A stretch of 64,000 bases of DNA from a virus. Its lineage: Duplodnaviria > Caudoviricetes. The notes beneath the pieces were generated by a model. That model made no database searches, was not told where the DNA came from, and saw nothing but the letters and a program-made list of their open reading frames with translations. The stretch spans positions 1 to 64,000 of IMG/VR virus record IMGVR_UViG_3300025708_000007, one strand, 5' to 3'. A program made the translations under genes and the position numbers. Below are positions 6,393 through 64,000 of this stretch, piece after piece (the first letter of the stretch is position 1; each line of letters begins with the position of its first letter).

Positions 6393-7877
6393 ATGACAAA
6401 TAAGCCGACAGAAGAACAGGAAAGAATATTCTTGTTTGTTAAAAAAAGACCAGAAAATATTTTAATTAAAGCATATGCTGGTGCAGGAAAAACCACCACT
6501 ATTGTTGAAGCAGTAAAATTGTTGCCAAAAGACAAAAATATTATGTTCTTGGCATTTAACAAACATATTCAGGAAGAACTTAAAACCAAATTACCCGAAC
6601 ATGTTCGCTGCTATACGACATATGGACTTGGAACTGCAGCGATTAAAAGAAAATACGGAGATAAAATACATTTTGATGAATTTAAAATCGATAAAATCAT
6701 TCTTGCAAAATCAAAAAATTGGGATTTGCACGATGAATTTAAAAGTGATGAAGAAATACTTCTTTATCAAGATTCAATAAAAAAATTGGTTAATCTTTGT
6801 CGTCTAACATTAACATTAAAACCGGAATTCGTACCATATGTTGCCGAAAGATATGATATAAATATCAGTAAACCAAAGGATATAAAAAGAGTACTTAAAG
6901 TACTTGATGAAGCAACAAGCGATAGAAAAAGCTTCGATTATACCGATATGATTTATCTTCCAGCAGTTGATAATGGCATATGGATGTTTCCGCAGGATTA
7001 TGTGTTTGTTGATGAGGTTCAAGATTTGAACAGATGCCAAATCAAAATAATAGAAAAGGTCTTGAAAAAAGACAGGGTGAGTGGAAAACTTACTGGCAGA
7101 TTAATCACTGTCGGTGATTTTTTTCAAGGAATTTATGGATTTAATGCTGCCGATGAAAAATCATTTGAATGGTTCGAAAAATTTCCAAACACCAAAACAT
7201 TACCACTTTCAGTATCATTCAGATGCTCACAAAATGTAATAAAAAAAGCACAGGAAATTGTGCCGGATATTAAAGCACTTCCTGATGCACCGGACGGTGA
7301 AGTAAGGGATGGCGATGTGCTTACTGAAGCGCAGAGTGGCGACTTTGTACTTTGCAGAACTACGATGCCACTGGTGAAACTATTTTTCGAATTTCTCACT
7401 CAGAGAAAAAAAGCAATTATTAAGGGTTCGGACATAGGAATACAACTTATTGACCTAATCGGTAAAATTAACAATCTTCCAAAACTCGTTAATTTCTGGG
7501 AAAATGAGTTGGCTGAATTTCGTAAAGAGTTAAAATCAAGTGGTGTTATTAATCCACGTGAGCATAGTGGATATGTGGCACTTGAAGATAAAGTAACAAC
7601 TTTGTTATTCTTAGCAGGACTTTCGGACAGCGTGGAAGACCTTAAAAGTAAAATCAGAACAATTTTTACTGATGAAATACAGGGTATTTGTTTAAGTACC
7701 GTACACAAAATTAAAGGTTTGGAAGCAAATCGAGTATTTATAGTACGCCCGGACTTACTGCCAATGCAAAATACCAAATCTTGGCAATATATTCAAGAGA
7801 AGAATTTGGAATATGTGGCATATACAAGGGCAAAACTTGAATTAATTTTTGATAGAAATTGGACTGACGAATCTTAA
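6393..7877 (+). CDS. UvrD/Rep-family SF1 helicase
   Basis: AYAGAGKTTT, VFVDEVQD, TVGDFFQGIYGF, STVHKIKGLE, YVAYTRAK; ATG 6393 preferred over the track start 6345. Confidence 0.9.
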   Translation: MTNKPTEEQERIFLFVKKRPENILIKAYAGAGKTTTIVEAVKLLPKDKNIMFLAFNKHIQEELKTKLPEHVRCYTTYGLGTAAIKRKYGDKIHFDEFKIDKIILAKSKNWDLHDEFKSDEEILLYQDSIKKLVNLCRLTLTLKPEFVPYVAERYDINISKPKDIKRVLKVLDEATSDRKSFDYTDMIYLPAVDNGIWMFPQDYVFVDEVQDLNRCQIKIIEKVLKKDRVSGKLTGRLITVGDFFQGIYGFNAADEKSFEWFEKFPNTKTLPLSVSFRCSQNVIKKAQEIVPDIKALPDAPDGEVRDGDVLTEAQSGDFVLCRTTMPLVKLFFEFLTQRKKAIIKGSDIGIQLIDLIGKINNLPKLVNFWENELAEFRKELKSSGVINPREHSGYVALEDKVTTLLFLAGLSDSVEDLKSKIRTIFTDEIQGICLSTVHKIKGLEANRVFIVRPDLLPMQNTKSWQYIQEKNLEYVAYTRAKLELIFDRNWTDES

Positions 7878-8257: not shown

Positions 8258-9913
8258 TTACTTCAAGTCGCCAATTCCGAAGGTTGTTAAACCATCGCAG
8301 AAAATTCTACCGTAGTAACGGTTAAGAACCATTTTCTTTGCATAACGAGTCATGATACCACGAATCGGTGTGAAATCGAATGGGTTGTACATAACCGGAG
8401 TCAACTGCATTGGTACATAAGGAGCATAAATGTAACCAGTCTCAAGGATTGATGTACCTTTATGTCCGATAAGTACTGTGTTTGCAGGAGCATACGGGTC
8501 ACGGTATACGATGTAACGTCCGCTAAGTGTACCGATTTTTTCGATACCCATGTTGTACTTGTCCTGTTCAGGAGCAGCGTTGCTAACATGGAAGTATTCA
8601 AGGTCATCGAATACTGCACTTACTTCAGGAGATACAACTACCCATGAAGCACCACCACGAAGGGTAGCTTTGTGAATCTGTGCTGAAATCTGGTTAACTT
8701 TTGTTACCAATGTTTGATTCCAGTCTTTCTGAACACCGTAGTATCCAGTAGTCTGCTTACGAAGACCATTGTAGTCCCATCTTGTTGTCCAAGCAGCACC
8801 CCTTCTAAGGTCACGAAGGATTTCACGGTCAATTTCTGCAGCCATCTGTTCTGAAAGAAGAGCGGTTAACTCAGCTTCAGCGTCAATGTTGTGGAATGCA
8901 CTAACGTCCTGTGCAAGTTCAGGTGTCCACATAGCACGCATTTTACGTGTTTCTACAGATACTGTAACTTGGTCAAGTACGAAAGTAACTTCAGCCATTT
9001 TTGAATCTTCTTCAAGGTCGCTGTATACCCTGTATGCATAGCTGAAAGTAGTTGCACTTGTAGCACCACTCAAAGCCTGATAGCCGTCAGTTCCCGGATA
9101 TGTTAAGTCAGCTACTACAACAACATCGCCAGTTTTGCTAACGATACCCTGTCCGTATTTCTGAACTTTTACATTGAAAGGAATAACTGAACTTGCAGGA
9201 ATTGAATCAGCAGCAGTAGGAGCATCCAAATTAGTGTCTGCGAAAATCCTCAAACCAGCAAGGAATGATTCGGTATCCAAAGGAACACCAGCAGGACCGA
9301 TAAGTTTACCATCGTTTGATGTACTGAAACCAGAAATGGTTAAAGTAACGAATTTACCAGTTGTATCAAGAACTGCTGCGCAGTCACCTGTTATAACGGT
9401 AATTTCACCCTTTGAACGGTCAAACAATGAATAACCTTCGTCATTATATTCGGTTGCATAGAATGCATCGTATAATGAACGAGTTTCGAACTGAGTTCTT
9501 GCTGATAAAGCAAGGTCAGCAGCATTACCATAAGCACCATTAGGTGAAGTATGCTCAAGACCAGCCGGAGCAACCCTAACAGAAGTCTTAGGATTGATGA
9601 AGTACAACTTACCGATAGGCAAGTTTAAAGCCTGTACTGAAACGATGTCGTTTGCAAGTAATTTTGCAAATACCCTACGAATTACAGGGAATGCAACAGT
9701 TTCGAACTGACCTGAACTTGCAGAATCAGTTGATTCGTTAATCATGTAAGATAACTGATTTTCGAAAAGCTGTGCGCAGTTTTCTTTTACGTTACCTTCA
9801 AGACCTTCCAACAAACCGATTTTTTCCCAACGGTTGGTTGTTATTTCTCTTTGTTCACGAAGTTGTTTTAATCCAATATTACCAACTTCGGCACTTTCCA
9901 TTAAAAATCCCAT
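8258..9913 (-). CDS. major capsid protein (T4 gp23-like)
   Basis: VQALNLPIGKLY, RKMRAMWTPELAQD, DAEAELTALLSEQMAAEIDREIL, YAPYVP, PIRGIMTRY. Confidence 0.95.
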   Translation of the reverse strand: MGFLMESAEVGNIGLKQLREQREITTNRWEKIGLLEGLEGNVKENCAQLFENQLSYMINESTDSASSGQFETVAFPVIRRVFAKLLANDIVSVQALNLPIGKLYFINPKTSVRVAPAGLEHTSPNGAYGNAADLALSARTQFETRSLYDAFYATEYNDEGYSLFDRSKGEITVITGDCAAVLDTTGKFVTLTISGFSTSNDGKLIGPAGVPLDTESFLAGLRIFADTNLDAPTAADSIPASSVIPFNVKVQKYGQGIVSKTGDVVVVADLTYPGTDGYQALSGATSATTFSYAYRVYSDLEEDSKMAEVTFVLDQVTVSVETRKMRAMWTPELAQDVSAFHNIDAEAELTALLSEQMAAEIDREILRDLRRGAAWTTRWDYNGLRKQTTGYYGVQKDWNQTLVTKVNQISAQIHKATLRGGASWVVVSPEVSAVFDDLEYFHVSNAAPEQDKYNMGIEKIGTLSGRYIVYRDPYAPANTVLIGHKGTSILETGYIYAPYVPMQLTPVMYNPFDFTPIRGIMTRYAKKMVLNRYYGRIFCDGLTTFGIGDLK

Positions 9914-33578: not shown

Positions 33579-33609
33579 TTTGTATTTATGATTTTAAGTG
33601 CTATATTTG
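33579..33609 (+). promoter_or_regulatory. Bacteroidota sigma-A-type promoter of tRNA operon 1
   Basis: TTTG-N19-TATATTTG. Confidence 0.8.
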
Positions 33610-33642
33610 CACTATCATTTTTTAAGATTTATTGCTATAGTT

Positions 33643-33717
33643 ATGGAGAATTTTGTACATATTCAACCCCAGCCACAACAGCATCCACAAGATGGTGAAT
33701 GGGGAACATGTGCTTAA
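33643..33717 (+). CDS. attenuator leader peptide 1 (His/Gln/Pro-rich)
   Basis: MENFVHIQPQPQQHPQDGEWGTCA; upstream of Pro/His/Gln tRNAs. Confidence 0.8.
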   Translation: MENFVHIQPQPQQHPQDGEWGTCA

Positions 33718-33752
33718 TTTTTCGAAGATGAAGTTTTGAGTTAAACATTGTG

Positions 33753-33783
33753 AACCCCATTCTGAAAAGAGTGGGGTTTTTTT
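33753..33783 (+). terminator. attenuator terminator 1
   Basis: AACCCCATTC-TGAAAA-GAGTGGGGTT+T5; 5' arm is also complementary to GAATGGGG (33697-33704). Confidence 0.85.
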
Positions 33784-33796
33784 GTTCTTTGAAATT

Positions 33797-33871
33797 CTGG
33801 GTGTTCCGCAGATGGCTATACGGGCGTGCCTTGGAAGCACGTGTTCGCTGGTTCGAATCCAGCTACCCAGA
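33797..33871 (+). tRNA. tRNA-Pro(TGG)
   Basis: cloverleaf; CGTGC-CTTGGAA-GCACG; GTTCGAATC T-loop. Confidence 0.9.
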
Positions 33872-38136: not shown

Positions 38137-39060
38137 ATGAAAAAAGATAGCAAACAAAGACTTTTCGAAGTTATGAGCAGACTTGATAAAACATTCAAGC
38201 CAAAATTGAATGAAATTTTTGGGGAAGAACCAGAAGAATTCGTCCCACACGGCACATATACTGTTTCGAATGCAGGTGGTTATGAAATTATGTTAAACGA
38301 TGCGGGTGATGCTGCCAAAGTACGTGATGCGTTTGGCTCAGACAACCCAAAAACTTCAGATTGGTTAGAAATAGAATACACGCCTGATAATGAAACTGGC
38401 GAAAGTGAACCAGTTATTGACCCAAATGGTTATAACATTCCTTTAAATCAGGTTATGAGATTACAAGAAGAAGCAAATGTTAATGAAGAACAAACCAGAC
38501 CATTATATGATATTGCTCAAGAAATCTATCAGGACTGGAGACCAGTTCATCCATATGCAAAACCATATCTTGAAGCAATGTCAACATTGAATTCAATAGA
38601 TGATAACTATATGATGGATTCAGGTAGAAGTATTGTTTCATATTTTCTTTCAAATGCAAGTCAATGGAAAGGTGAAACAGCAAAACGCATTAAAATTGAA
38701 TTGAAAAAAATGTTAGGAATGCGAGAAGGTAGTAGATTAAATGAAACTGGTGAATGGGCAGGTGATGAAGATGATATAGCATGGATAGATGCTCTCAAAT
38801 CTGAAGTACAAAAAATCGAATCAGAAACTGATGGAAAATTAAAATTGGTCGAAGTCAGGGGTTTCGATAAATATCAAGGACCTTACGCCATTGTTGATAT
38901 TGAAGGAAGAAAATACAAAATCTGGACAGTTGGTGGTGAATATGATAGCGATTTACTTTGGATTGAAAATTATCCCATTGACAATACTTCAAGTGAGGAT
39001 ATGAATGCTGGTTTTATGGGTACAACAAAAACAATTATTAATATGTTGAAACAGAACTGA
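38137..39060 (+). CDS. multidomain protein with RLFEVM leader
   Basis: MKKDSKQRLFEVMSRLDKTFKPKLNE; internal LQE/VNE/LNE junctions. Confidence 0.8.
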   Translation: MKKDSKQRLFEVMSRLDKTFKPKLNEIFGEEPEEFVPHGTYTVSNAGGYEIMLNDAGDAAKVRDAFGSDNPKTSDWLEIEYTPDNETGESEPVIDPNGYNIPLNQVMRLQEEANVNEEQTRPLYDIAQEIYQDWRPVHPYAKPYLEAMSTLNSIDDNYMMDSGRSIVSYFLSNASQWKGETAKRIKIELKKMLGMREGSRLNETGEWAGDEDDIAWIDALKSEVQKIESETDGKLKLVEVRGFDKYQGPYAIVDIEGRKYKIWTVGGEYDSDLLWIENYPIDNTSSEDMNAGFMGTTKTIINMLKQN

Positions 39061-39104: not shown

Positions 39105-39135
39105 TTTGTTTATTTTGAAACATTTTTTATCTTTG
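39105..39135 (+). promoter_or_regulatory. Bacteroidota sigma-A-type promoter of tRNA operon 2
   Basis: TTTG-N19-TATCTTTG. Confidence 0.8.
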
Positions 39136-39200
39136 TATCGTATAATTGCAAAACAAATAGTATTTAAATAAAAAGTATTAACAATTAAAATTCAAAACGA

Positions 39201-39296
39201 ATGAAAAGAATGCTCGACATATCAGTAATGGCAGTAGCCTTGAACGCAGTCCTATTATGGGATGCAGTAGAGGATGCGCTATGCAAAGTCGGGTAA
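39201..39296 (+). CDS. attenuator leader peptide 2 (Val/Ala/Leu/Asp/Glu/Trp)
   Basis: MKRMLDISVMAVALNAVLLWDAVEDALCKVG; upstream of Asp/Glu/Val/Leu/Ala/Trp tRNAs. Confidence 0.8.
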   Translation: MKRMLDISVMAVALNAVLLWDAVEDALCKVG

Positions 39297-39333
39297 TTTG
39301 TATTCATATACAACCTCCTTTCTAAATGAAAAG

Positions 39334-39365
39334 ACCCGACTTCCCTACAAGCCGGGTTTTTTTTT
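39334..39365 (+). terminator. attenuator terminator 2
   Basis: ACCCGACTT-CCCTAC-AAGCCGGGT+T run; 5' arm perfectly complementary to AAGTCGGGT (39286-39294). Confidence 0.85.
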
Positions 39366-39375
39366 GAAAGGAGAA

Positions 39376-39393
39376 GTTCTTTGACATGCTGGA
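39376..39393 (+). promoter_or_regulatory. boxA-like antitermination site
   Basis: GTTCTTTGACATGCTGGA, identical at 61012-61029. Confidence 0.55.
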
Positions 39394-54063: not shown

Positions 54064-54867
54064 ATGAAACTATTTAATTTTTTAAAAAGAAAAAACAAAA
54101 TCGAACCACAGGTTAGTGGAAATAAATTAGGACTTGGTTGGAAACGTGATTTACCTGACCCAAGAGACTTTAAATTTAAAGTAACTGCACCAATTCCATT
54201 ACCAAGTTTGGTTGATTTAAGACCAAAATGCCCACCAATTTATAACCAATATGAACTTGGTTCATGTACAGCAAATGCAATGGGTGCTGCATTTCAATTT
54301 GAACAAATGAAGCAGGGAAAGAAAAATTTCATGCCTTCAAGACTTTTTATTTATTATAATACCAGAGCAATTGAGGGTACAATTAATTCCGATGCAGGTG
54401 CAACCATGAGAAATACAATGAAAAGTTTGGTTGATAAAGGCACTTGCCCTGAAACAAAATGGGATTATAATACCAGCAAATTTGCAGAAAAACCAAATTT
54501 CTGTTGCTATCAGATAGCAAAGGATAATCAAGTTCTTCAATATTTGAGAGTAACGCATGATTTAACAGAAATAAAACAATGCCTTGCTTTGGGATACACC
54601 GTTGCATTCGGTATGATACTATTTAATTCATTCATGTCAAACGATACTGCTGCAAACGGAAATGTAATTATGCCATTGCCAAATGAATCATCAATTGGCG
54701 GTCATGCAGTACTTGCTGTTGGATATGATGAAGAGAAGAAAGTATTGATAATGAGGAATAGTTGGGGCGTAGAATGGGGTGATAAGGGTTATTTTTATCT
54801 ACCATACGAATATATAACAACACCCAACTTAGCTGCTGACTTTTGGACAATTAGACTGGTTGAATAA
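54064..54867 (+). CDS. papain-family (C1A) cysteine peptidase
   Basis: QYELGSCTANA, GGHAVLAVGY, RNSWGVEWGDKGYFYL. Confidence 0.93.
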   Translation: MKLFNFLKRKNKIEPQVSGNKLGLGWKRDLPDPRDFKFKVTAPIPLPSLVDLRPKCPPIYNQYELGSCTANAMGAAFQFEQMKQGKKNFMPSRLFIYYNTRAIEGTINSDAGATMRNTMKSLVDKGTCPETKWDYNTSKFAEKPNFCCYQIAKDNQVLQYLRVTHDLTEIKQCLALGYTVAFGMILFNSFMSNDTAANGNVIMPLPNESSIGGHAVLAVGYDEEKKVLIMRNSWGVEWGDKGYFYLPYEYITTPNLAADFWTIRLVE

Positions 54868-54895
54868 AAAAATATTGAAAATTTTGTAACATTTA

Positions 54896-54926
54896 TTTGT
54901 TTTTATCGTATTTATCCTTACATTTG
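54896..54926 (+). promoter_or_regulatory. Bacteroidota sigma-A-type promoter of tRNA operon 3
   Basis: TTTG-N19-TACATTTG. Confidence 0.8.
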
Positions 54927-54954
54927 TAACCTCAAACTTTGTAAAAACATTTTT

Positions 54955-55044
54955 ATGATGACTATTTTTGGAACATATTATTACGGTAAAAAATCTTATA
55001 AGAAACAACTTATAGGAATCGGGAATACTATGTCCAAAAATTAA
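54955..55044 (+). CDS. attenuator leader peptide 3 (Tyr/Lys-rich)
   Basis: MMTIFGTYYYGKKSYKKQLIGIGNTMSKN; upstream of Tyr/Lys tRNAs. Confidence 0.85.
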   Translation: MMTIFGTYYYGKKSYKKQLIGIGNTMSKN

Positions 55045-55072
55045 ATGGTTTTGATTTTAATCTGACATGAAC

Positions 55073-55101
55073 AACCCGATTCCGAAAGAGTCGGGTTTTT
55101 T
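55073..55101 (+). terminator. attenuator terminator 3
   Basis: AACCCGATT-CCGAAAG-AGTCGGGTT+T run; CCCGATTCC also pairs with GGAATCGGG (55015-55023). Confidence 0.85.
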
Positions 55102-55113
55102 ATTTTGTATATT

Positions 55114-55195
55114 CGGCAGAATGGTAAGTGGGTGAAATCACAGGTCTGTAAAACCTTCGCCATTGGCTATGGGGGTTCGAATCCCTCTCTGCCGA
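55114..55195 (+). tRNA. tRNA-Tyr(GTA)
   Basis: loop CTGTAAA; long variable arm. Confidence 0.88.
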
Positions 55196-55244
55196 CTGAA
55201 AGAGTTTAGGCATTTTCTGTATCGCTGACTGAAATATCCAAATT

Positions 55245-55318
55245 GACTTCGTATCCGTAGTGGCTTTCGGACTTGACTCTTAATCAAGGATACGTGGGTT
55301 CGAATCCCACCGAGGTCA
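55245..55318 (+). tRNA. tRNA-Lys(CTT)
   Basis: CTTGA-CTCTTAA-TCAAG. Confidence 0.88.
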
Positions 55319-55323
55319 CAAAT

Positions 55324-55406
55324 GGGAGTGCGCTATCGTTGGAGAGATAGGCTTGTCTGTAAAACAAGTGCCATTGGCTGAGTTGGTTCGAATCCTATCG
55401 CTCCCA
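55324..55406 (+). tRNA. tRNA-Tyr(GTA)
   Basis: CTTGT-CTGTAAA-ACAAG; long variable arm. Confidence 0.88.
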
Positions 55407-55413
55407 CAAATTT

Positions 55414-55486
55414 GCGCTTGTAACTCAGTTGGTAGAGTAACGGACCTTTAATCCGTGAGTCGTGGGTTCGACCCCCACCGGGCGCA
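55414..55486 (+). tRNA. tRNA-Lys(TTT), C at position 33
   Basis: ACGGA-CCTTTAA-TCCGT. Confidence 0.82.
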
Positions 55487-55493
55487 CAAATAT

Positions 55494-55567
55494 TCTCCTA
55501 TAGCAAACAGGATGTATTGCCCCGCTCTTTTAAAGCGGTGGGTCTGGTTCGATTCCAGATAGGAGAA
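55494..55567 (+). tRNA. tRNA-Lys(TTT)
   Basis: CCGCT-CTTTTAA-AGCGG. Confidence 0.82.
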
Positions 55568-55655
55568 CAGACAAGCATTGTGTTCATACTAACATTTAAT
55601 TAATGAATATAATGCTTTTTCGTTTTGCAATGTATTTATCATAAAAGTATTTTTT

Positions 55656-56300
55656 ATGTATCATTGCAATAAATGTGATAAAAACTTCGAAAATCGGTAT
55701 TCTTATATAGCACATTGCCGAATTCATTCCAATTATGTAAGACCCAAAAATCCAAATTCAAGACGAAATAAACCACCCAAAACAATATGTATATATTGTG
55801 GTAAAACTTTTCAGAATGGACGTAGTTTAGGTGGACACATGACCCATTGCGAATTAAATCCAAATCATAATCTTATTTTACAAAACATGTCCAAAGCAAG
55901 TCCAAAACGAAAATGGTCAGAAGAAGATAAAAAGAAAATTAGTAGAAGAATGATTGAATTTTTAATGAAAAATCCAGACAAAGTACCATATAAATTAAAT
56001 CATTCAAGTAAAATGAGTTATCCTGAAAGAGTATTTGAAAATGCATTAAAATCAGCAAATATTTCAGGTTGGACATACAATTACCAAAATGGAATTTATT
56101 CATATGACTTTGCGTTTCCAGTTTTGAAAATAGATGTGGAAATTGATGGAAATACACATATCCAAGAAAAGGTGAGAAATATTGATAAACGCAGGGATAA
56201 ATTTAGTACCAATAATGGTTGGATTGTAATTCGTTTTACCGCAAATGAAATTAAAGAAGATGTTTTGAAATGTATAAATACATTAAAAACATTTCTTTAA
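55656..56300 (+). CDS. C2H2 zinc-finger + DUF559/Vsr-like endonuclease
   Basis: CNKC...HCRIH, CIYC...HMTH; YDFAFPVLKIDVEIDGNTH...RDKF. Confidence 0.8.
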   Translation: MYHCNKCDKNFENRYSYIAHCRIHSNYVRPKNPNSRRNKPPKTICIYCGKTFQNGRSLGGHMTHCELNPNHNLILQNMSKASPKRKWSEEDKKKISRRMIEFLMKNPDKVPYKLNHSSKMSYPERVFENALKSANISGWTYNYQNGIYSYDFAFPVLKIDVEIDGNTHIQEKVRNIDKRRDKFSTNNGWIVIRFTANEIKEDVLKCINTLKTFL

Positions 56301-56412
56301 GTATTTATATTCCCCATTGTTTTTATTTAGTCTAAATAAAAATAACTTGCATTTTTAAATAAAAGATGTTATATTTGGGGAAAATAACTTTTAAGTTTAA
56401 GTATTATGAAGC

Positions 56413-57237
56413 ATGACTAAAAAGAAAAAAGTAACGACAACCGTTACGACTACCGTTACTGAAGAAATAATTTCTTCGAACGAAAAAACTCAAATTATCT
56501 GTATTCTTGACCGTTCTGGCTCTATGTCAGAGAACGGTGTAATTTATGAAGCAATCAATGGCTTCAACGAGTTCCTTAAAAAACAAAGGGAGCTAAAAGA
56601 CAAAGCAACACTCACTGTTGCACTATTCGATGACCAATATCAGTTACTTTATGATGATGTTGACGTAAAAGATGTTCCAGACATCACATACGACACTTGG
56701 ACACCAAGAGGGATGACAGCATTGCTTGATGCAATTGGTAAAACAATCAACGCTGTAAAGGCAAACCGTATTAAATTAGGCTCAGAAAAACCCGATAAAG
56801 TATTGGTTTGCATTGTTACTGACGGCAAAGAAAATGCAAGTCAGGAATATGTTGCAAGACAAGGCAATAAAGGCGATGTGATAAAAAAACTTATTAAAGA
56901 ATGTGAAAATGAAGGCTGGAATTTCATTTATCTTGCTGCAAATCAGGACGCATTTGATGTTGGCAGCACATTTGGTGTAAGTTATGGAAATACCTACAAT
57001 TTTGCTGCAACTGCTGCTGGCGCATCTGCAATGAGCATGACGTTAAATAACGCTACTGTATCATACAGAAGCATGAGCACACAAGACGCTGGCTATCAGA
57101 AAAAAGCAAAAAATCTTATTGCTGATTTAGGCGAACAGGATGAAAAAGATGACTCACAAGATAGTGATAATAATACTGTAACTGGTACGGCTACAGGTAA
57201 TGTTACTTTTGATGTAAATAATATGTCACACACATAA
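56413..57237 (+). CDS. von Willebrand factor A domain protein
   Basis: MIDAS motif DRSGSM, GMTALLDA, IVTDGKEN. Confidence 0.9.
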   Translation: MTKKKKVTTTVTTTVTEEIISSNEKTQIICILDRSGSMSENGVIYEAINGFNEFLKKQRELKDKATLTVALFDDQYQLLYDDVDVKDVPDITYDTWTPRGMTALLDAIGKTINAVKANRIKLGSEKPDKVLVCIVTDGKENASQEYVARQGNKGDVIKKLIKECENEGWNFIYLAANQDAFDVGSTFGVSYGNTYNFAATAAGASAMSMTLNNATVSYRSMSTQDAGYQKKAKNLIADLGEQDEKDDSQDSDNNTVTGTATGNVTFDVNNMSHT

Positions 57238-57275
57238 TTATTTTTCTGTTTTTTTTCGTATCTATTTCCGTTTTA

Positions 57276-57302
57276 AAGGGTGTTTTCCGACACCCTTTTT
57301 TT
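57276..57302 (+). terminator. intrinsic terminator
   Basis: AAAGGGTGT-TTTCCG-ACACCCTTT+T run. Confidence 0.75.
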
Positions 57303-57446
57303 GTTAAAAGTTTCAGCCATAGTGGATTAAAAAAACGTGAAAAATTTTTTTAAAAATAATTGTGAAATGTCAAGAATCCCTTGTATTTATGGTTGCCTTT
57401 GCATATATTTGCAAACATAAAATTTCATAAAAAATTATAAAAAATT

Positions 57447-60014
57447 ATGACAGAAAAATCGCAAAAAATTTATTCAAAACAGGAAATAGAAAAATCAACA
57501 TTACAGTATTTTAAGGGTGACGAACTGGCAACAAAAGTCTGGCTTACAAAATACTGCTTAAAGGACGAAAAAAACTATTACGAATTAAACCCGGATGAGA
57601 TGCACAGAAGACTTGCCAAAGAACTCGCAAGAATCGAAGCAAAATATCCAAACCCTCTCACAGAAGAACAAATTTATGAAACATTAAAAAATTTCAATAG
57701 AATTGTACCACAAGGGTCTCCAATGTCAGGTATTGGCAATGATTTCCAAGTGGTATCTTTATCCAATTGTTTCGTTATTGGTAATAAGGGTGAATCAGAT
57801 TCCTATGGTGGAATATTAAAAATAGACCAAGAACAAATACAATTAATGAAACGCAGAGGCGGTGTCGGACACGATTTGTCCCACATTCGTCCAAAAGGAA
57901 GTCCGGTGAAAAATAGTGCAATTACCAGTACGGGTGTTGTACCTTTCATGGAAAGATATTCAAATAGCACAAGAGAAGTCGCACAAGACGGTAGACGTGG
58001 CGCACTTATGCTTAGTATTTCAATAAAACATCCAGATTCCGAAGCATTTATTGATGCAAAAATGACACCGGGAAAAATAACTGGCGCAAACGTATCGGTA
58101 AAAATTGATAATGATTTCATGGAGTGTGCAATGCAAGGGACTACATACACTCAAATGTTTCCTACAAAGGGACATCCAAAAATGATTAAAGATATTGATG
58201 CGCAAAAACTTTGGAAAAAAATTATTCACAATGCTTGGAAATCTGCCGAACCGGGAATACTTTTCTGGGATAAGATTATGGAAGAAAGTGTTCCAGATTG
58301 TTATGCTGATGAAGGATTCACAACCGTAAGCACAAATCCTTGTGGCGAAATTCCACTATGTCCATACGATAGTTGTCGATTGTTAGCAATTAATTTGTTT
58401 GGATATATTAAAAATCCTTTCACCAAGGAAGCAGAATTTGATTGGGATTTGTTTGAAAAAGATGTCATTATTGCTATGAGATATATGGATGACATCATTG
58501 ACTTGGAAGTTGAAAAAATTGATGCAATTCTTGAAAAAATCAAGTCTGACCCCGAAGATGAATTTCTTAAATTAACTGAAATCAACCTTTGGAATAATAT
58601 CAAGGAAATGACGCTTAAAGGTAGAAGAACCGGACTTGGTGTAACTGCTGAAGGTGACATGCTTGCAGCTTTGAATTTACGTTATGGAACTGATGAAGCA
58701 ACAGATTTTAGTGAAAAAGTACATAGAACATTAAAATTAAAAGCATATCGTTCAAGTGTTATTATGGCAGAAGAACGTGGCGCATTCTCCGTTTGGAATG
58801 GCGAACGTGAAACAAAAAATCCTTTCATTCTTAGAATAGCTGCTGAAGACCCAGAATTGTTTGAAGATATGATGAAATATGGACGTAGAAATATTTCATT
58901 ACTCACAATTGCACCAACTGGTACTGTTTCAATCATGACACAAACAACTTCGGGTATTGAACCAGCATTTGAAGTGTTTTACAAACGTAGACGTAAAATT
59001 AATCCACAGGAAAAAGATGTTCGCATTGATTTTGTTGATGAAGAAGGAATTGCGTGGACTGAATATCCAGTCTTTCACCATAAATTCGAAACATGGCTTG
59101 AATTGAATGGATATGACGTTAATGTTGTAAGAACAATGGATAATGCGCAACTCGATGAAGTTGTGAAAAAATCGCCATATTATAAAGCAACGGCAAATGA
59201 TGTCGATTGGTTAAAAAAGGTTGAAATGCAGGGTCGTTTACAAAGACACGTAGACCACTCAATTTCAGTGACAGTCAATCTCCCAAGTGACATTACTGAA
59301 GAAATGGTGGCAAAAGTTTATGAAACCGCATGGAAATCTGGCTGTAAGGGTTGTACTGTCTATCGTGATGGTTCACGCAGTGGTGTGTTAATCACTGAAG
59401 AAAAGAAAACAAAAGAAAGTGAATTTCATGATACGCATGCGCCAAAACGTCCTAAGAGATTAAAAGGTGAAATTCATCGTTTTCAAAACAGTCTTGAAAA
59501 ATGGATTGCAGTTGTTGGATTAAAAGACGGCAGACCATATGAAATTTTCACAGGTAAAAATGAAAACGGCTTGAGTTATCTGCCAAACAATTTAAAAGAA
59601 TGTGAAATTGTTAAGCAAATCTTTGAAGTTGAAGAACCAGATGAAAATGGTAAATTGGTTAAAGTCAGAAAAAAAAGATATGACATTGAATATATTGACG
59701 CTAATGGCGAAAGACAAGTACATACTGGCTTAAATCATGCATTCAATCCTGAATTCTGGAACTATGCAAAATTCATATCTGCAGTTCTCAGGCATGGAAT
59801 GCCACTTCTTTATACGTGGGAATTAATTGATTCATTGAACTTTAAAGAAGACTATATCAACACTTGGAAAAATGGTGTTGCTCGTGTGATAAAGAAATAC
59901 ATTAAAGATGGTATTGAAGTAAATAAAAAATGCCCGAATTGTGGTAGTGACCATTTGGAATTTAAAGAAGGTTGCCTCACATGTATGGCATGTGGAAACA
60001 GTAAATGCGGTTAA
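57447..60014 (+). CDS. nrdJ: class II (adenosylcobalamin-dependent) ribonucleotide reductase
   Basis: SLSNCF, RRGALM, TNPCGEIPL, TIAPTGT, VDHSISVTVN, KGCTVYRDGSR, C-terminal zinc ribbon. Confidence 0.93.
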   Translation: MTEKSQKIYSKQEIEKSTLQYFKGDELATKVWLTKYCLKDEKNYYELNPDEMHRRLAKELARIEAKYPNPLTEEQIYETLKNFNRIVPQGSPMSGIGNDFQVVSLSNCFVIGNKGESDSYGGILKIDQEQIQLMKRRGGVGHDLSHIRPKGSPVKNSAITSTGVVPFMERYSNSTREVAQDGRRGALMLSISIKHPDSEAFIDAKMTPGKITGANVSVKIDNDFMECAMQGTTYTQMFPTKGHPKMIKDIDAQKLWKKIIHNAWKSAEPGILFWDKIMEESVPDCYADEGFTTVSTNPCGEIPLCPYDSCRLLAINLFGYIKNPFTKEAEFDWDLFEKDVIIAMRYMDDIIDLEVEKIDAILEKIKSDPEDEFLKLTEINLWNNIKEMTLKGRRTGLGVTAEGDMLAALNLRYGTDEATDFSEKVHRTLKLKAYRSSVIMAEERGAFSVWNGERETKNPFILRIAAEDPELFEDMMKYGRRNISLLTIAPTGTVSIMTQTTSGIEPAFEVFYKRRRKINPQEKDVRIDFVDEEGIAWTEYPVFHHKFETWLELNGYDVNVVRTMDNAQLDEVVKKSPYYKATANDVDWLKKVEMQGRLQRHVDHSISVTVNLPSDITEEMVAKVYETAWKSGCKGCTVYRDGSRSGVLITEEKKTKESEFHDTHAPKRPKRLKGEIHRFQNSLEKWIAVVGLKDGRPYEIFTGKNENGLSYLPNNLKECEIVKQIFEVEEPDENGKLVKVRKKRYDIEYIDANGERQVHTGLNHAFNPEFWNYAKFISAVLRHGMPLLYTWELIDSLNFKEDYINTWKNGVARVIKKYIKDGIEVNKKCPNCGSDHLEFKEGCLTCMACGNSKCG

Positions 60015-60015
60015 T

Positions 60016-60198
60016 ATGATAATATTGGAAAACAAAATTATTGGTGAAAAGTACGTTGCAGGATATTACCTGACAATGGAAGATTTAAAAAGGCTTGTAA
60101 GAGATTTTCAAGCAGATTGTCACGATGGATTCATAAGTAATGATGAAGCATATCTTGAACAGTGGCTTAAAAAGCACGAACGAATCGAAAAAAAATAA
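60016..60198 (+). CDS. hypothetical protein
   Basis: 60-aa ORF directly after the nrdJ stop. Confidence 0.6.
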   Translation: MIILENKIIGEKYVAGYYLTMEDLKRLVRDFQADCHDGFISNDEAYLEQWLKKHERIEKK

Positions 60199-60275
60199 GC
60201 AAAAACCCCGGAAAGCCAGTATTTTCGGGGTTTTTTATTGTTTGTTGTAGTATTTATTATAAAAAATTATAAATC

Positions 60276-60491
60276 ATGGAAACTGTGTTAACAATATTGT
60301 TACTTTACATATTGGGAGTGACAATTTATACTATCTTGGTAAGAAAAAGTCCAACAAATAAACATGTGCCGAACTTTAATTATAAGTCAACAATAATTGA
60401 TGGAATGAAAGGGATGGCTATTGGTTTTGCAGTTGTCGGTGCATTATATTTTATCTTAGGACAAATTTTAACTTGGGTTCATATACATTGA
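60276..60491 (+). CDS. two-TM membrane protein
   Basis: two hydrophobic helices; AGTATTTATT upstream. Confidence 0.65.
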   Translation: METVLTILLLYILGVTIYTILVRKSPTNKHVPNFNYKSTIIDGMKGMAIGFAVVGALYFILGQILTWVHIH

Positions 60492-60546
60492 ATATTAACG
60501 AGTTAGATTTTTTCTGTAAAAAAAATGAAAAAAATATTGAAAATAA

Positions 60547-60577
60547 TTTGGTATTTATGAAACATTTTATACCTTTG
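60547..60577 (+). promoter_or_regulatory. Bacteroidota sigma-A-type promoter of tRNA operon 4
   Basis: TTTG-N19-TACCTTTG. Confidence 0.8.
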
Positions 60578-60646
60578 CATCGTATTTAGGTAAAAATGAG
60601 TTTATGAAAAAACCTTTTTATTATTAAAAACAAAAAAAATAAAACA

Positions 60647-60781
60647 ATGAAACGAATAGCGTACATATTAGTATCGAGTCTAACGACAACCAGTCGTATT
60701 GGAGAAGGTACATTTTGCTCAGATTTCGGCAGAAATAATATTGCGGATACGGGTTCAGGTTTTATTGACTTAAAAAGATAA
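60647..60781 (+). CDS. attenuator leader peptide 4 (Thr/Ser/Ile/Gly/Phe/Cys/Asn/Arg)
   Basis: MKRIAYILVSSLTTTSRIGEGTFCSDFGRNNIADTGSGFIDLKR. Confidence 0.75.
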   Translation: MKRIAYILVSSLTTTSRIGEGTFCSDFGRNNIADTGSGFIDLKR

Positions 60782-60814
60782 GTAGGTAGTAAAATAAAAC
60801 TGAAATAAAATCAG

Positions 60815-60846
60815 AACCCGGAATCCAAAAAAGTTCCGGGTTTTTT
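60815..60846 (+). terminator. attenuator terminator 4
   Basis: AACCCGGAAT-CCAAAAAA-GTTCCGGGTT+T run; GAACCCG pairs with CGGGTTC (60750-60756). Confidence 0.85.
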
Positions 60847-60871
60847 GTTTTTAATGCGTTCTTTACATATT

Positions 60872-60943
60872 GCCAAGTTAGTTTAACGGATAGAATCTCT
60901 GTGTGGTATTCAGGGGATACAAGTTCGATTCTTGTACTTGGCT
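60872..60943 (+). tRNA. tRNA-Thr(GGT)
   Basis: GCCAAGT/ACTTGGC acceptor; loop GTGGTAT; imperfect anticodon stem. Confidence 0.7.
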
Positions 60944-61035
60944 CAAAAATATAAGTCTTACAGCTTATAAACACCGAATATAAGGTTTATGTCTTATATT
61001 TACCGTAAGATGTTCTTTGACATGCTGGATTACCT

Positions 61036-61120
61036 GTCGGGTTGCCTGAGTGGTTGAAAGGGGCGGTCTGCAAAACCGTTTGCTTAATTGCACACGTGGG
61101 TTCGAATCCCACATCCGACT
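61036..61120 (+). tRNA. tRNA-Cys(GCA) with long variable arm
   Basis: GCGGT-CTGCAAA-ACCGT; U73; TGC-TTAATT-GCA variable hairpin. Confidence 0.85.
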
Positions 61121-61210
61121 CTACGGTTCAACAAACTAATGGCGTTGAATTTTATACGCATGCATGCCAATACGTATGAAAGGAAGGGTGAAACCCCCTT
61201 CACTGCACTT

Positions 61211-61296
61211 GTTCGGGTTGCTTTAGTTGGTCGAAAAGTCCTGCCTGTTAAGCAGACGGAGAAATCCCACCGCAGGTTCGAATCCTGCCCCGAACG
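61211..61296 (+). tRNA. tRNA-Asn(GTT) with long variable arm
   Basis: CTGC-CTGTTAA-GCAG; G73; GGA-GAAA-TCC variable hairpin. Confidence 0.8.
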
Positions 61297-61359
61297 CAAA
61301 TCTTTTTCATACTTTCGACTATTTATTATAAATAATGAGATAATTAATTAATCGAAAGT

Positions 61360-61953
61360 ATGAAAACAAAAGATAGTGTAATTAAACTAAGACTTTCTGG
61401 AAAAAGTTATGGCGAAATAAGTAAAATGCTGAACATTTCTAAACCCACAGTATCCTACCATTGTATAAATGCCGGATTGAATGAACCAATTGATGGTCGT
61501 AAAATATTGAATGAGGCTGAGAAAATTGAACTTAATGAATATTATAAATCACATACTATTTTCGAAACAGCAGAAAAATTTAAGATATCAAGAACAACTG
61601 TTCTTGCAAACACTGAAAATAAGAGACTGGTATTGTGTGAAATTGAAAAAAGAAAAAGAAATTATGAAAAGGTAAAAAATAGGCGACAACGGCTTAAAGA
61701 GATGGGTGTTGAATATTTAGGTGGAAAATGTATGAAATGTGGGTATGATAAATGTATTGCTGCGTTAGAATTTCACCATAGAAACCCAGAAGAAAAAGAA
61801 TTTGGAATATCACGTTATCAAAATTTGAGTTGGTCAAGAATTATTGTTGAATTAGATAAATGTGATTTACTGTGTTCTAATTGTCATAAAGAATTACATT
61901 ATGAGGAACATTGGGATGTATCACCTCTGCCTGATAAGCAGTCGAAAGTGTAG
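61360..61953 (+). CDS. HTH + HNH homing endonuclease
   Basis: CMKCGYDKCIAALEFHHRNP...KCDLLCSNCHKELH. Confidence 0.88.
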   Translation: MKTKDSVIKLRLSGKSYGEISKMLNISKPTVSYHCINAGLNEPIDGRKILNEAEKIELNEYYKSHTIFETAEKFKISRTTVLANTENKRLVLCEIEKRKRNYEKVKNRRQRLKEMGVEYLGGKCMKCGYDKCIAALEFHHRNPEEKEFGISRYQNLSWSRIIVELDKCDLLCSNCHKELHYEEHWDVSPLPDKQSKV

Positions 61954-61989
61954 TTTGGTTGCACGTGGGTTCAAATCCCACCTTCCCAA
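61912..61989 (+). tRNA. tRNA-Ile(GAT)-like, D-arm missing
   Basis: CTGC-CTGATAA-GCAG; GTGGG-TTCAAAT-CCCAC; only 6-8 nt between acceptor and anticodon stem. Confidence 0.5.
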
Positions 61990-62027
61990 CAAACCTTGAC
62001 GAAGGTTTAACGTTGCAACGTTGAAAT

Positions 62028-62108
62028 GGCTACCTGTGGTTAGCATAGCTGGCAATGCTGCCCCCTGAAATGGGTGAAGGTGAGTTCAAGTCTCACACGC
62101 AGGAGTCA
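62028..62108 (+). pseudogene. degenerate tRNA-like element (GAA loop)
   Basis: good D-arm and T-arm; weak anticodon and acceptor stems. Confidence 0.4.
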
Positions 62109-62115
62109 TTTATTT

Positions 62116-62200
62116 GGAGAAGTGTCCGAGTGGTTTATGGTGGCAGTCTTGAAAACTGCTGGATGTAACAGTCCCGTGGGTTCGAATCCTACCTTCTCCG
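62116..62200 (+). tRNA. tRNA-Ser(TGA)
   Basis: GCAGT-CTTGAAA-ACTGC; long variable arm; G73. Confidence 0.95.
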
Positions 62201-62274
62201 CAAAGTCGTGTGCATTGGACTATCATCACACGATTTTCACATCAAAAAGGAGTCATGACCCGGTTTGATGTCAG

Positions 62275-62430
62275 GGTTCTGGGTTGCATAAGAGGCTGCC
62301 CTGATGTTCAGTGGCGAAATCATGTACTCGCATTTGGCAGTGCGAATAGTACACGATAAGTAGTTGAGAGACATCCAAGTTAGTTGAAATACTTTCGGGG
62401 GACGTGAGTATGAGGCTCACACCAGAACCA
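62275..62430 (+). ncRNA. candidate 156-nt structured RNA
   Basis: GGTTCTGG/CCAGAACC closing stem; T-arm-positioned GTGAG-TATGAGG-CTCAC hairpin. Confidence 0.45.
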
Positions 62431-62434
62431 AAAT

Positions 62435-62506
62435 GGAGCGGTAACTCAATGGTAGAGTGTCTGCCTGAAGAGCAGATGGTTGCAGGTTCAAGTCCTGCCC
62501 GTTCCA
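62435..62506 (+). tRNA. tRNA-Phe(GAA)
   Basis: TCTGC-CTGAAGA-GCAGA. Confidence 0.93.
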
Positions 62507-62552
62507 CCGAAACGGTTCGCACTACACGATATGGAGAGTAGGAAGTGCAAAT

Positions 62553-62714
62553 GGGGAGATAGGGTTATTTGGTAGACTCGTCAGTGTGAAAACTGAACTA
62601 CGAAAGTAGGTAGTCCTCATGAGGGTTGTTGTTAACGTGCGCACAATTCTAACAACGCTTCCACTGAATGTGAGTAATGACGAGAGGTTGGTGGTTCAAA
62701 TCCATCTCTCCCCA
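62553..62714 (+). ncRNA. tRNA scaffold carrying a ~100-nt structured insert
   Basis: GGGGAGA/TCTCCCC acceptor, D-arm, T-arm GGTGG-TTCAAAT-CCATC; no 7-nt anticodon loop. Confidence 0.6.
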
Positions 62715-62761
62715 CCGCAACGGTTCGCACTACACGGTGATTAACGAGGAAGTGCAAAATT

Positions 62762-62835
62762 GTTGGGTAGTTTACAATGGGCAAAACGTCTGCCATGCGC
62801 AGGTGGACAAGAGGGTTCAAATCCTTCTCCAACAG
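62762..62835 (+). ncRNA. tRNA-like RNA with non-canonical anticodon arm
   Basis: good acceptor, D- and T-arms; middle arm folds as 7 bp + ATGCGCA loop or 5 bp + 5-nt loop. Confidence 0.5.
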
Positions 62836-63000
62836 CAATTAAGAACTGGTCGCACGGGTGTTTGTCCTAACCAGAAAAACATTGTTCACCGAATAGGTGA
62901 GTATCCGAAAGTGGGCGATTCGGAGTGTGAAAATTTTTTATAGGTCGGGTCACAGAGGGCGTGGCTTGGGTAACTGTCTCACAAGGCATCCTGTAAATAC

Positions 63001-63073
63001 GGTGCGGTAGCTCAGTTGGTAGAGCAATGGACTGAAAATCCATGTGTCGGCAGTTCGATTCTGCCCCGTACCA
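63001..63073 (+). tRNA. tRNA-Phe(GAA)
   Basis: ATGGA-CTGAAAA-TCCAT. Confidence 0.95.
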
Positions 63074-63118
63074 CCCCCATCCATGCGGTTCGCACTACAC
63101 GAAGTAGGAAGTGCAAAT

Positions 63119-63191
63119 GCAGGAATAACTCAATTGGCAGAGCGTCAGCCTTCCAAGCTGAAAGTTGCGGGTTCGAATCCCGCTTCCTGCT
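63119..63191 (+). tRNA. tRNA-Gly(TCC)
   Basis: TCAGC-CTTCCAA-GCTGA; U73. Confidence 0.95.
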
Positions 63192-63245
63192 CAAAATGGG
63201 TCTGAGGGAGTCCCTTAAAGGTATAAATAACCTGTCCCTCTCCAT

Positions 63246-63319
63246 AGTGGTGTAGCTCAATTGGTTAGAGCACTCGGCTTATACCCAAGAGGTTGGGGGT
63301 TCAAGTCCCTTCACCACTA
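63246..63319 (+). tRNA. tRNA-Ile(TAT)
   Basis: loop CTTATAC; A73. Confidence 0.85.
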
Positions 63320-63456
63320 CAAACGCAGTGCTCACAGTCTCGCAAACTGTTATAAAGGAGTAGTTAAACCCGAAATCGGTTCTCGAAATCGGCTGCGTTT
63401 TATTTTTTTGGTTAACAATTTGTGTTAACCACGTATTTATGCATAAATTGTATTTT

Positions 63457-63801
63457 ATGATTAAAGAATGTAAAAAACATGGGTTAACTGAATTTAGTTG
63501 TGTTGGAAATGGTAATGGCACAAAAAGATGGCGATGCAAAAAATGTGTTGTTGATGCAGTAACCAAAAGACGAAGAGTTTTAAAAGAAAAAGCAGTTGCA
63601 TATAAAGGTGGAAAATGTGAAAAGTGTGGATATGATAAATATATTGGAGCACTTGAATTTCATCATCCTGAAAATAATAAAGAATTTGGAATCGGTCAAA
63701 AAGGATATACAAAAAGTTGGGAAGCAATAAAAAAAGAATTGGATAAATGTATGCTTGTTTGTTCTAATTGTCATAAAGAAATTGCTGCTGGTATAATATA
63801 A
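63457..63801 (+). CDS. HNH homing endonuclease
   Basis: CEKCGYDKYIGALEFHHP...KCMLVCSNCHKEI; paralog of 61360..61953. Confidence 0.88.
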   Translation: MIKECKKHGLTEFSCVGNGNGTKRWRCKKCVVDAVTKRRRVLKEKAVAYKGGKCEKCGYDKYIGALEFHHPENNKEFGIGQKGYTKSWEAIKKELDKCMLVCSNCHKEIAAGII

Positions 63802-63875
63802 GCTTCGGTAGCTCAGTTGGTAGTAGCATCTGACTGTTAATCAGAGGGTCGCAGGTTCAAGTCCTGCCCGGAGCG
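63802..63875 (+). tRNA. tRNA-Asn(GTT)
   Basis: TCTGA-CTGTTAA-TCAGA; G73. Confidence 0.95.
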
Positions 63876-64000
63876 CAAAAAAGATTTGGAATCATCATTT
63901 TAATTATTATCTTTGTTTTTTAATTTTTATAAAATGTACGAATATCCAAAGCTTAGTGAACGGTACTTTTTCTGGAAAAGATTGTATCAAAAATTGAAAA

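Follow-up and report, generated by a model that had tools for sequence, protein, structure and literature searches.

A probable leader-peptide attenuator preceding the largest tRNA operon in a jumbo phage genome

Transcription attenuation by translated leader peptides is familiar from the enterobacteria, where it includes the trpL, hisL and pheL leaders as well as multivalent leaders such as thrL, which senses Thr and Ile, and ilvL, which senses Ile, Val and Leu. A protector or pause hairpin (the 1:2 pairing) is typical of the trp and his attenuators, but it is not universal. In E. coli, pheST, with its pheM leader, provides an attenuator of phenylalanyl-tRNA synthetase. The genes for tRNAs are usually described as being under the control of growth rate and the stringent response. 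Here we describe a putative regulatory unit, designated unit D, that precedes a block of tRNA genes in the first 64 kb (the window) of an IMG/VR virus record (IMGVR_UViG_3300025708_000007) of 90,967 bases, which is rated 28% complete and is a fragment of a jumbo phage genome of roughly 325 kb. From its sequence and that of its relatives, we think it likely that unit D works by ribosome-mediated attenuation, through a leader peptide, and in this way controls the transcription of this phage's largest tRNA operon.

The window has a G+C content of 34%, and ARAGORN predicts within it 41 tRNA genes and a tmRNA, all of them on the plus strand between 33.8 and 63.9 kb. All 20 amino acids are divided among four tRNA operons (A to D), each of which is headed by one promoter/leader/terminator unit. 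A promoter motif of the Bacteroidota type (TTTG-N17-21-TAnnTTTG) occurs eight times on the plus strand of the 91-kb record, and four of these eight occurrences lie just 5' of the four leaders. A megablast comparison of positions 54800-63900 with the public phage genomes in INPHARED returned short tRNA matches only, so the phage has no close cultured relative in that collection. The elements of unit D, and the part of its operon that lies in the window, are the following.

60547-60577, plus strand: Bacteroidota-type promoter of unit D, with TTTG at -33, a 19-nt spacer and TACCTTTG at -7
60647-60781, plus strand: leader ORF of unit D, preceded by an A-rich untranslated stretch, with an ATG start and 44 codons plus stop; translation MKRIAYILVSSLTTTSRIGEGTFCSDFGRNNIADTGSGFIDLKR
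60745-60766, plus strand: 5' arm of the antiterminator, within leader codons 33-40, with the core CGGGTTC at 60750-60756
60805-60826, plus strand: 3' arm of the antiterminator, overlapping the 5' arm of the terminator (60813-60824)
60813-60852, plus strand: intrinsic terminator found by pattern scan, with a 12-bp stem (AGAACCCGGAAU / GUUCCGGGUUUU) that has five G-C pairs, a loop of 8 and the tract T6GT5
60872-63876, plus strand: in-window part of operon D, from the first tRNA to a tRNA-Asn

The attenuator interpretation of this locus, which had been put forward in a preliminary description of the window, draws support from the presence of a dedicated promoter, an open and conserved leader, an intrinsic terminator, an antiterminator that excludes it and the co-variation of leader and operon. 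Transcription of the unit would be expected to begin near 60585. The gene that lies 5' of the unit encodes the large subunit of ribonucleotide reductase, and since it has a terminator of its own at 60201-60235, the hairpin at 60813 is not the terminator of the reductase gene. This hairpin (60813-60844) folds with -16.8 kcal/mol (z -4.2), and the terminator ends 20 nt before the tRNA-Thr gene at 60872. The preliminary description had also proposed that CGGGTTC (60750-60756) pairs with GAACCCG (60814-60820), and these complementary segments lie at exactly those positions. They belong to a longer helix, in which 60745-60766 pairs with 60805-60826 at -24.3 kcal/mol (z -5.0, with 0 of 200 shuffles as good) in a fold made on 60735-60826, that is, without the 3' arm of the terminator. 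Because the terminator and the antiterminator both use 60813-60826, they are mutually exclusive.

Relatives of the locus were collected from IMG/VR by way of the neighbouring reductase gene, which led to 95 related stretches and about 30 loci with tRNA arrays. Five complete relatives, 321-363 kb in length, supplied whole arrays with 42-65 tRNA matches per genome, and a second search with a neighbouring gene (the protein encoded at 38137-39057) yielded only 5 loci. Homologous D terminators occur in all of the relatives, and TAnnTTTG is found within 150 nt upstream of 20 of the 21 D-type leaders (0.125 expected). In a MAFFT alignment of 19 D-type units the antiterminator is paired in 78% of the cells, versus 12-58% in slid registers, and five of its pairs change on both sides; only the antiterminator helix was counted on this alignment, in which the 3' arms of the terminators are out of register. 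The two arms covary, as CGAGTCTTT/AAAGACTCG in relative G002, GGGGTT/AACCCC in L041 and GTGTCGGG/CCCGACAC in L012, compared with CGGGTTC/GAACCCG in the window. An alignment-free duplex test gave a similar picture: in the 45 terminators that lie at most 350 nt 5' of a tRNA gene, nearly all of which are terminators of leader units, the 5' arm finds a complement further upstream (median z -3.6), which is not the case for 35 other terminators of these regions (median z 0.15; p = 1.4e-12 by the Mann-Whitney test). The antiterminator of unit D itself scores z -3.8 in this test.

The leader peptide had been said to contain five Thr, five Ser, five Ile, five Gly, three Phe, two Asn, one Cys and four Arg residues, a count that is exact for the ORF at 60647-60781 and amounts to 30 of the 43 residues that follow the initial Met (binomial p = 1.4e-4 against the phage proteome). 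Two ATA codons and an ACC codon had been singled out as matching particular tRNAs; they are codons 4, 7 and 15, respectively, and both of the tRNAs, Ile(tat) at 63246 and Thr(ggt) at 60872, are present. Among 17 D-type homologues the leader frame is free of stops in every case (17/17), whereas the other two frames of the same DNA contain 1-5 stops each, and the mean fraction of cognate residues is 0.80 in frame versus 0.33 and 0.46 out of frame. The conserved columns of these leaders are all cognate residues, many of them with synonymous codons (ACA/ACC/ACT for Thr, CGT/CGC/CGA for Arg and GGA/GGG/GGT for Gly). Other columns are fixed for a single codon (AGT, AGA, TCA, GGC and ATA), with the result that every leader samples ATA as well as the two codon boxes of each of Ser, Arg and Gly. 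The leader in the window likewise samples both boxes for Ser (TCN and AGT), Arg (CGN and AGA) and Gly (GGA and GGY), and both of the matching tRNA classes are found in the operon. Altogether, the anticodons that the phage itself encodes suffice to read 27 of the 30 cognate codons in this leader.

The tRNA genes of operon D are listed below; the first eleven lie in the window, and those that follow were found by ARAGORN and Rfam in the rest of the record and are given with record positions.

60872, plus strand: tRNA-Thr(ggt)
61036, plus strand: tRNA-Cys
61211, plus strand: tRNA-Asn
62033, plus strand: tRNA-Phe
62116, plus strand: tRNA-Ser(tga)
62435, plus strand: tRNA-Phe
62761, plus strand: marginal tRNA-Arg(gcg)
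63001, plus strand: tRNA-Phe
63119, plus strand: tRNA-Gly(tcc)
63246, plus strand: tRNA-Ile(tat)
63802, plus strand: tRNA-Asn
65649 of the record: tRNA-Thr(tgt)
65739 of the record: tRNA-Thr(cgt)
66916 of the record: tRNA-Arg(tct)
67304 of the record: tRNA-Arg(cct)
67388 of the record: tRNA-Arg(tcg)
67467 of the record: tRNA-Arg(acg)
68340 of the record: tRNA-Gly(gcc)
70421 of the record: tRNA-Ser(gct)

The four Arg codons of the leader had led to the prediction that Arg tRNA genes, along with further Thr, Ser and Gly tRNAs, would be found just beyond the window, and this expectation was borne out by four Arg tRNAs at 66916-67544 of the record and by two Thr tRNAs, one Gly tRNA and one Ser tRNA. 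From leader D to Ser(gct) at 70421, the tRNAs are specific for the eight amino acids in which the leader is rich (C, F, G, I, N, R, S, T) and for no others; an array that continued with foreign amino acids and no Arg tRNA, which would have spoken against the prediction, is not what the record contains. The related statement that there is no canonical tRNA-Arg up to 64000 was roughly right, in that the only such call in the window is the marginal Arg(gcg). Between 60852 and about 72500 of the record we found neither a real gene on the minus strand nor, apart from a single weak pattern match near 64659, any plus-strand terminator that was convincing.

The Arg(gcg) call by ARAGORN (62761-62836) has a shortened anticodon loop and reached 30.6 bits in a local Rfam search (cut-off 29); it was not picked up by the Rfam tRNA model in a 31-kb search. 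It may represent a degenerate or unusual tRNA, and similar ARAGORN calls were obtained in G002 and L071. Homing-endonuclease-like ORFs (HTH/HNH and NUMOD3/endonuclease-I-like) are located among the tRNAs of operon D, at 61360-61953 and 63439-63801 of the window and at 4921-5541 of L097. About 6 kb of such ORFs and of unknown ORFs separate leader D from the Arg tRNAs, and since compact relatives such as L053, in which the whole D operon consists of 2.6 kb of tRNAs, are without them, these insertions are probably secondary.

Co-variation between leaders and operons extends to all four units of the array. A blind scan for plus-strand terminators showed that, in every genome, each of the four blocks is headed by the corresponding promoter/leader/terminator unit. 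For 36 of 37 leaders, from ten genomes or contigs, the best match was the leader's own operon. The lone exception, leader C of L040, stands before a 'Leu(gag)' call that is an ARAGORN miss, Rfam and direct reading having revealed tRNA-Tyr(GTA) and tRNA-Lys(TTT) there, so that 37/37 leaders match their own operons. The most telling cases are L071 and L040, where block D is split and the leaders have followed: a short leader with many T, R and I residues (MKNLIKITRITRKRRTTSSNGFIV) stands before tRNAs for Thr, Thr, Arg (four genes) and Ile (two genes), and a second D leader, with many N, F, S, G, L and C residues, before tRNAs for Asn, Phe, Ile, Ser, Gly, Leu and Cys. In L067, block B is without Ala tRNAs and leader B has one Ala, versus five in the window. 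The association between at least two leader residues of an amino acid and an operon tRNA for that amino acid has an odds ratio of 25.5 in 8 genomes, a figure that is descriptive only because its rows are not independent. The 'Met(cat)' genes that occupy the slot of Ile(tat) in L012 and L067 are probably genes for tRNA-Ile2. Taken together, the sequence elements, their conservation, the alternative pairings and the co-variation with operon content are direct observations.

The three sister units of the window are built in the same way as unit D.

33579-33781, plus strand: sister unit A, with promoter, leader at 33643-33717 (MENFVHIQPQPQQHPQDGEWGTCA) and terminator at 33750-33781, followed by Pro/His/Gln tRNAs
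39105-39361, plus strand: sister unit B, with promoter, leader at 39201-39296 (MKRMLDISVMAVALNAVLLWDAVEDALCKVG) and terminator at 39330-39361
54896-55101, plus strand: sister unit C, with promoter, leader at 54955-55044 (MMTIFGTYYYGKKSYKKQLIGIGNTMSKN) and terminator at 55069-55101, followed by Tyr/Lys tRNAs

Cognate residues make up 10 of 23 in leader A (p = 1e-5; antiterminator duplex z -3.3) and 9 of 28 in leader C (p = 0.011; duplex z -4.4). Operon B contains, in order, Asp/Glu/Val/Leu/Ala/Trp tRNAs, the tmRNA, Leu and Met; its leader is enriched for these amino acids with p = 2e-4 in the within-genome test, and with 22 of 30 residues and p = 4e-5 in the ten-genome test (duplex z -3.6). Within this genome the enrichment of all four leaders is confined to the amino acids of their respective operons, every off-diagonal test being non-significant.

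From these elements we infer a switch that is coupled to translation, as well as its direction and its physiological trigger. Transcription would begin at the promoter at 60547-60577, and the 44-codon leader would be translated while it is being made. If the ribosome were to slow at Thr, Ser, Ile, Gly, Phe, Asn, Cys or Arg codons within codons 10-32, the segment 60745-60766 would be left free to pair with 60805-60826, the terminator would not form and RNA polymerase would enter the tRNA genes. If the leader were read fast, the ribosome would be over or just past the arm during synthesis of the terminator, and the hairpin at 60813-60844 could form and stop transcription at the T-run. The tRNA products would relieve the stall and close a negative feedback loop, in which tRNAs would be made when aminoacyl-tRNAs are short and would cease to be made when these are plentiful. 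The three sister units would play the same role for the other twelve amino acids. The trigger might be the loss of host tRNA (through host shut-off or anticodon nucleases) or the codon demand of the phage itself.

Activated-sludge metatranscriptomes provide some information about the transcription of this region. Between 39 and 52% of the words of 54800-64000 are present in six runs, and the comparison itself was made with assembled contigs of four runs, which come without 3' ends, strand or levels. In four activated-sludge metatranscriptomes the contigs of the tmRNA are 238-927x deep, versus 2-20x for the flanks, which means that RNA of the phage is present. Two contigs, corresponding to 60278-60972 and 60601-60912 and coming from two runs of two studies, span the leader, the terminator and tRNA-Thr; they are compatible with read-through and lend weak support to the attenuator interpretation. 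A contig from a variant strain ends at 60832, inside the terminator, and was not counted as evidence.

Several observations weigh against the attenuator interpretation or limit its reach. The cognate fraction of leader D is reached by 23 of 570 (4%) random small ORFs from the same 91-kb record (those of 20-60 codons). Since its set of eight amino acids is large, composition alone is modest evidence for leader D, and for this reason the case rests on context, that is, on the architecture of the unit, the three sister units and the relatives. Three ATT codons of the leader are without a cognate phage tRNA in this genome, because Ile(gat), although present in most relatives, is missing here, and operon D of L076 has a Gln tRNA while its leader has no Gln codon. 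The geometry is also imperfect. The core of the antiterminator arm of unit D ends 22 nt before the stop codon, and a ribosome on that codon would cover only the inner extension at 60758-60766, so that the core might have to be blocked through timing or steric hindrance; the arms of units A and B end 0-10 nt from the stop, and these units fit the classical attenuator geometry better than unit D does. There is no supported protector (1:2) pairing in unit D (z 0.14 against shuffles), so the default without translation would be read-through, unlike the situation in trp. A protector duplex is unsupported in most of the other units as well, and only class A leaders reach z -2 to -3.3. (A protector hairpin for unit D had been suggested by a fold of the full transcript in which the start of the ORF pairs with the antiterminator arm, and it was dropped when the duplex test did no better than shuffles.) Contig depth at unit D is 8-9x, like the background, and might reflect DNA carry-over. 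The mechanism further assumes a close coupling of transcription and translation in the presumed Bacteroidota host. Finally, a fifth good promoter match (TTTG-N19-TAnnTTTG) is located inside operon D at 63885-63915, 3' of tRNA-Asn and 5' of an ORF at 64023, and could give the distal genes a transcript that bypasses the attenuator; together with the 6 kb or so of inserted ORFs, this candidate promoter means that control of the distal genes may be partial.

Some of these points would fit an explanation in which the same hardware reads general translation status, amino-acid starvation or the stage of infection rather than the abundance of tRNA. In its timer variant, the operon would be off while host translation is healthy and on once it declines. 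The default of such a sensor would be read-through, and efficient translation of the leader would be required for the off state. An untranslated leader should indeed read through in unit D, where protector pairing is lacking, and it is established for the trp and his attenuators that a stalled ribosome cannot distinguish a missing tRNA from an uncharged one. A general sensor would have no need, however, for four leaders that each mirror the amino acids of their own operon, for leaders that track the re-partition of operons in L071 and L040, or for the sampling of both boxes of Ser, Arg and Gly. On balance we consider such a general sensor unlikely.

In a second explanation, the ORF would give rise to a small peptide with a function of its own, the hairpin would be a terminator or insulator of the usual kind, and the agreement in composition with the tRNAs would be incidental. 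The amino-acid-level conservation of a core, STSSRNG..IFCS.F.GRN, is what one would expect of a functional peptide, and the 4% of random small ORFs that reach the composition of the leader could be cited in its favor. Yet four unrelated leader sequences match their own operons (in 37 of 37 cases), and the conserved residues of these leaders that are not cognate coincide with the antiterminator arms read as codons, namely EWG in A, VG in B, IGIG in C and DTGSGF in D. Terminators elsewhere are without the upstream complement, and the tRNAs would be silenced if the promoter lay only 5' of a peptide gene and that gene were followed by a terminator. These considerations make the functional-peptide explanation very improbable.

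We find it harder still to credit an RNA-only switch similar to a T-box, which would bind tRNA directly and to which the ORF would be irrelevant. T-box leaders likewise use a terminator/antiterminator pair to respond to tRNA status, but there is no match to the T-box (stem I specifier loop, T-box antiterminator sequence) or to any other riboswitch in Rfam at E <= 1 within 60400-61000, the leader frame is open with a frame-specific composition in all homologues, and eight amino acids are beyond the reach of one specifier codon. That leader D might be a chance ORF beside the terminator of the upstream gene is scarcely tenable, since, abundant as small ORFs are in this AT-rich DNA (the 570 of the record), the reductase gene has its own terminator, unit D has its own promoter, and the idea is already contradicted by conservation, leader/operon co-variation, the duplex test and the frame-specific signal.

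A number of other features of the arrays deserve mention. A 71-codon ORF (60276-60491), hydrophobic in its C-terminal half and without a Pfam match, separates the reductase terminator from the leader D promoter. The phage tmRNA (45122-45495) is inside operon B, with no terminator between leader B and the tmRNA. The motif TTCTTTGACATGCTGG occurs at 33785-33800, 39377-39392 and 61013-61028 of the window, directly 3' of attenuator terminators or just 5' of a tRNA; similar copies precede tRNA-Cys in the relatives L011, L062, L064 and L076, and the motif might act as a signal for processing or pausing. The distal end of the array carries a tRNA with a CUA anticodon (of the amber suppressor type, labelled 'Pyl' by ARAGORN), at 9291-9366 of L097 or 73291-73366 of the record, which is conserved in G001-G005 and L071. 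In several relatives, though not in the window, the terminator of leader C and the first Lys/Tyr tRNA are separated by about 180 nt that consist of (A/G)TGAAAAAC(A/G) repeats. Some tRNA-Lys-like genes have extra bases in the region of the D arm and are missed or mis-called by ARAGORN; the 'Leu(gag)' call of L040 has a UUU anticodon loop on direct reading. The repeat blocks and the Lys-like genes are located as follows.

L011, 7985-8130: block of TGAAAAAC repeats, found also in L005, L020, L049, L057 and L059
L040, 9005-9094: Lys-like tRNA with extra D-arm bases
L019, about 2800-2900: Lys-like tRNA with extra D-arm bases
L039, about 8360-8450: Lys-like tRNA with extra D-arm bases
L064, about 7470-7570: Lys-like tRNA with extra D-arm bases

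If the units work as their sequences imply, phage tRNA arrays would be expressed on demand, with each operon being switched on by the slow decoding of its own codons. A broader proposal, to which we would give an even chance of being correct, is that the four leaders together form a sensor of decoding capacity that resolves codon classes for all 20 amino acids, and that the phage thereby replaces exactly those sets of tRNAs that its host has lost, whether to anticodon nucleases, to host shut-off or in some other way. If true, this would be a demand-driven tRNA homeostasis run by a virus, a principle that, to our knowledge, has not been described for tRNA genes in any organism. Within a full-text literature coverage that leaves out most subscription journals, we found no case in which tRNA genes or operons, whether of phages or of Bacteroidetes, are subject to leader-peptide attenuation, nor any account of tRNA genes that are controlled by a sensor of the tRNAs they encode. 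Such control would bear on why large phages carry nearly complete tRNA sets, on how phages cope with tRNA-cleaving defence systems and on the design of compact, portable sensors for tRNA availability.

Unit D can be compared with several known systems. Three recent papers treat large phage tRNA sets as probable replacements for host tRNAs that are lost to nucleases or host shut-off (PMC10264068, PMC11464382, PMC11555353); their abstracts deal with the purpose of phage tRNAs, whereas unit D concerns the control of their transcription. The replacement of nuclease-cleaved host tRNAs, as envisaged there, is a plausible selective reason for attenuated tRNA operons. The T-boxes resemble unit D, as interpreted here, in that they sense tRNA status through a terminator/antiterminator switch 5' of translation-related genes, and differ from it in that they bind uncharged tRNA directly, without translation and with one specifier codon. 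The only match of unit D to a cis-regulatory family in Rfam is to Thr_leader (RF00506), with 18.3 bits (E 0.71), which is below the threshold (the gathering score being 55).

Further parallels are offered by the leader-peptide attenuators. Unit D shares with them a leader that is rich in regulatory codons and has its own start, a Rho-independent terminator and an antiterminator that excludes it, although the placement of the latter is imperfect; the genes of operon D are tRNAs and homing-endonuclease-like ORFs, not genes for biosynthesis or charging. As is proposed here for the phage unit, pheST uses leader-peptide attenuation to govern a component of translation that sets the supply of the aminoacyl-tRNA being sensed; in pheST, however, this component is a synthetase for one amino acid, encoded on a bacterial chromosome, whereas in unit D it would be the tRNAs themselves, for eight amino acids. 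With thrL and ilvL the phage units share a short leader in which regulatory codons abound and several amino acids are represented. The terminator is intrinsic in both cases, an antiterminator vies with it for its 5' arm, and the read-out of the phage units would likewise consist of ribosome speed on the cognate codons. The phage units differ from thrL and ilvL in their phage setting with Bacteroidota-type promoters, in the lack of any sequence or covariance-model similarity, in having (in the case of unit D) no supported 1:2 protector hairpin and an antiterminator arm that is inside the ORF rather than after its stop, and in the capacity of one leader to sample up to eight amino acids and several isoacceptor classes. 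Above all, the targets of the phage units are tRNA genes and not biosynthetic enzymes, so that the loop would feed back on the supply of tRNA, and the novelty of the system would be that of an attenuator regulating tRNA genes.

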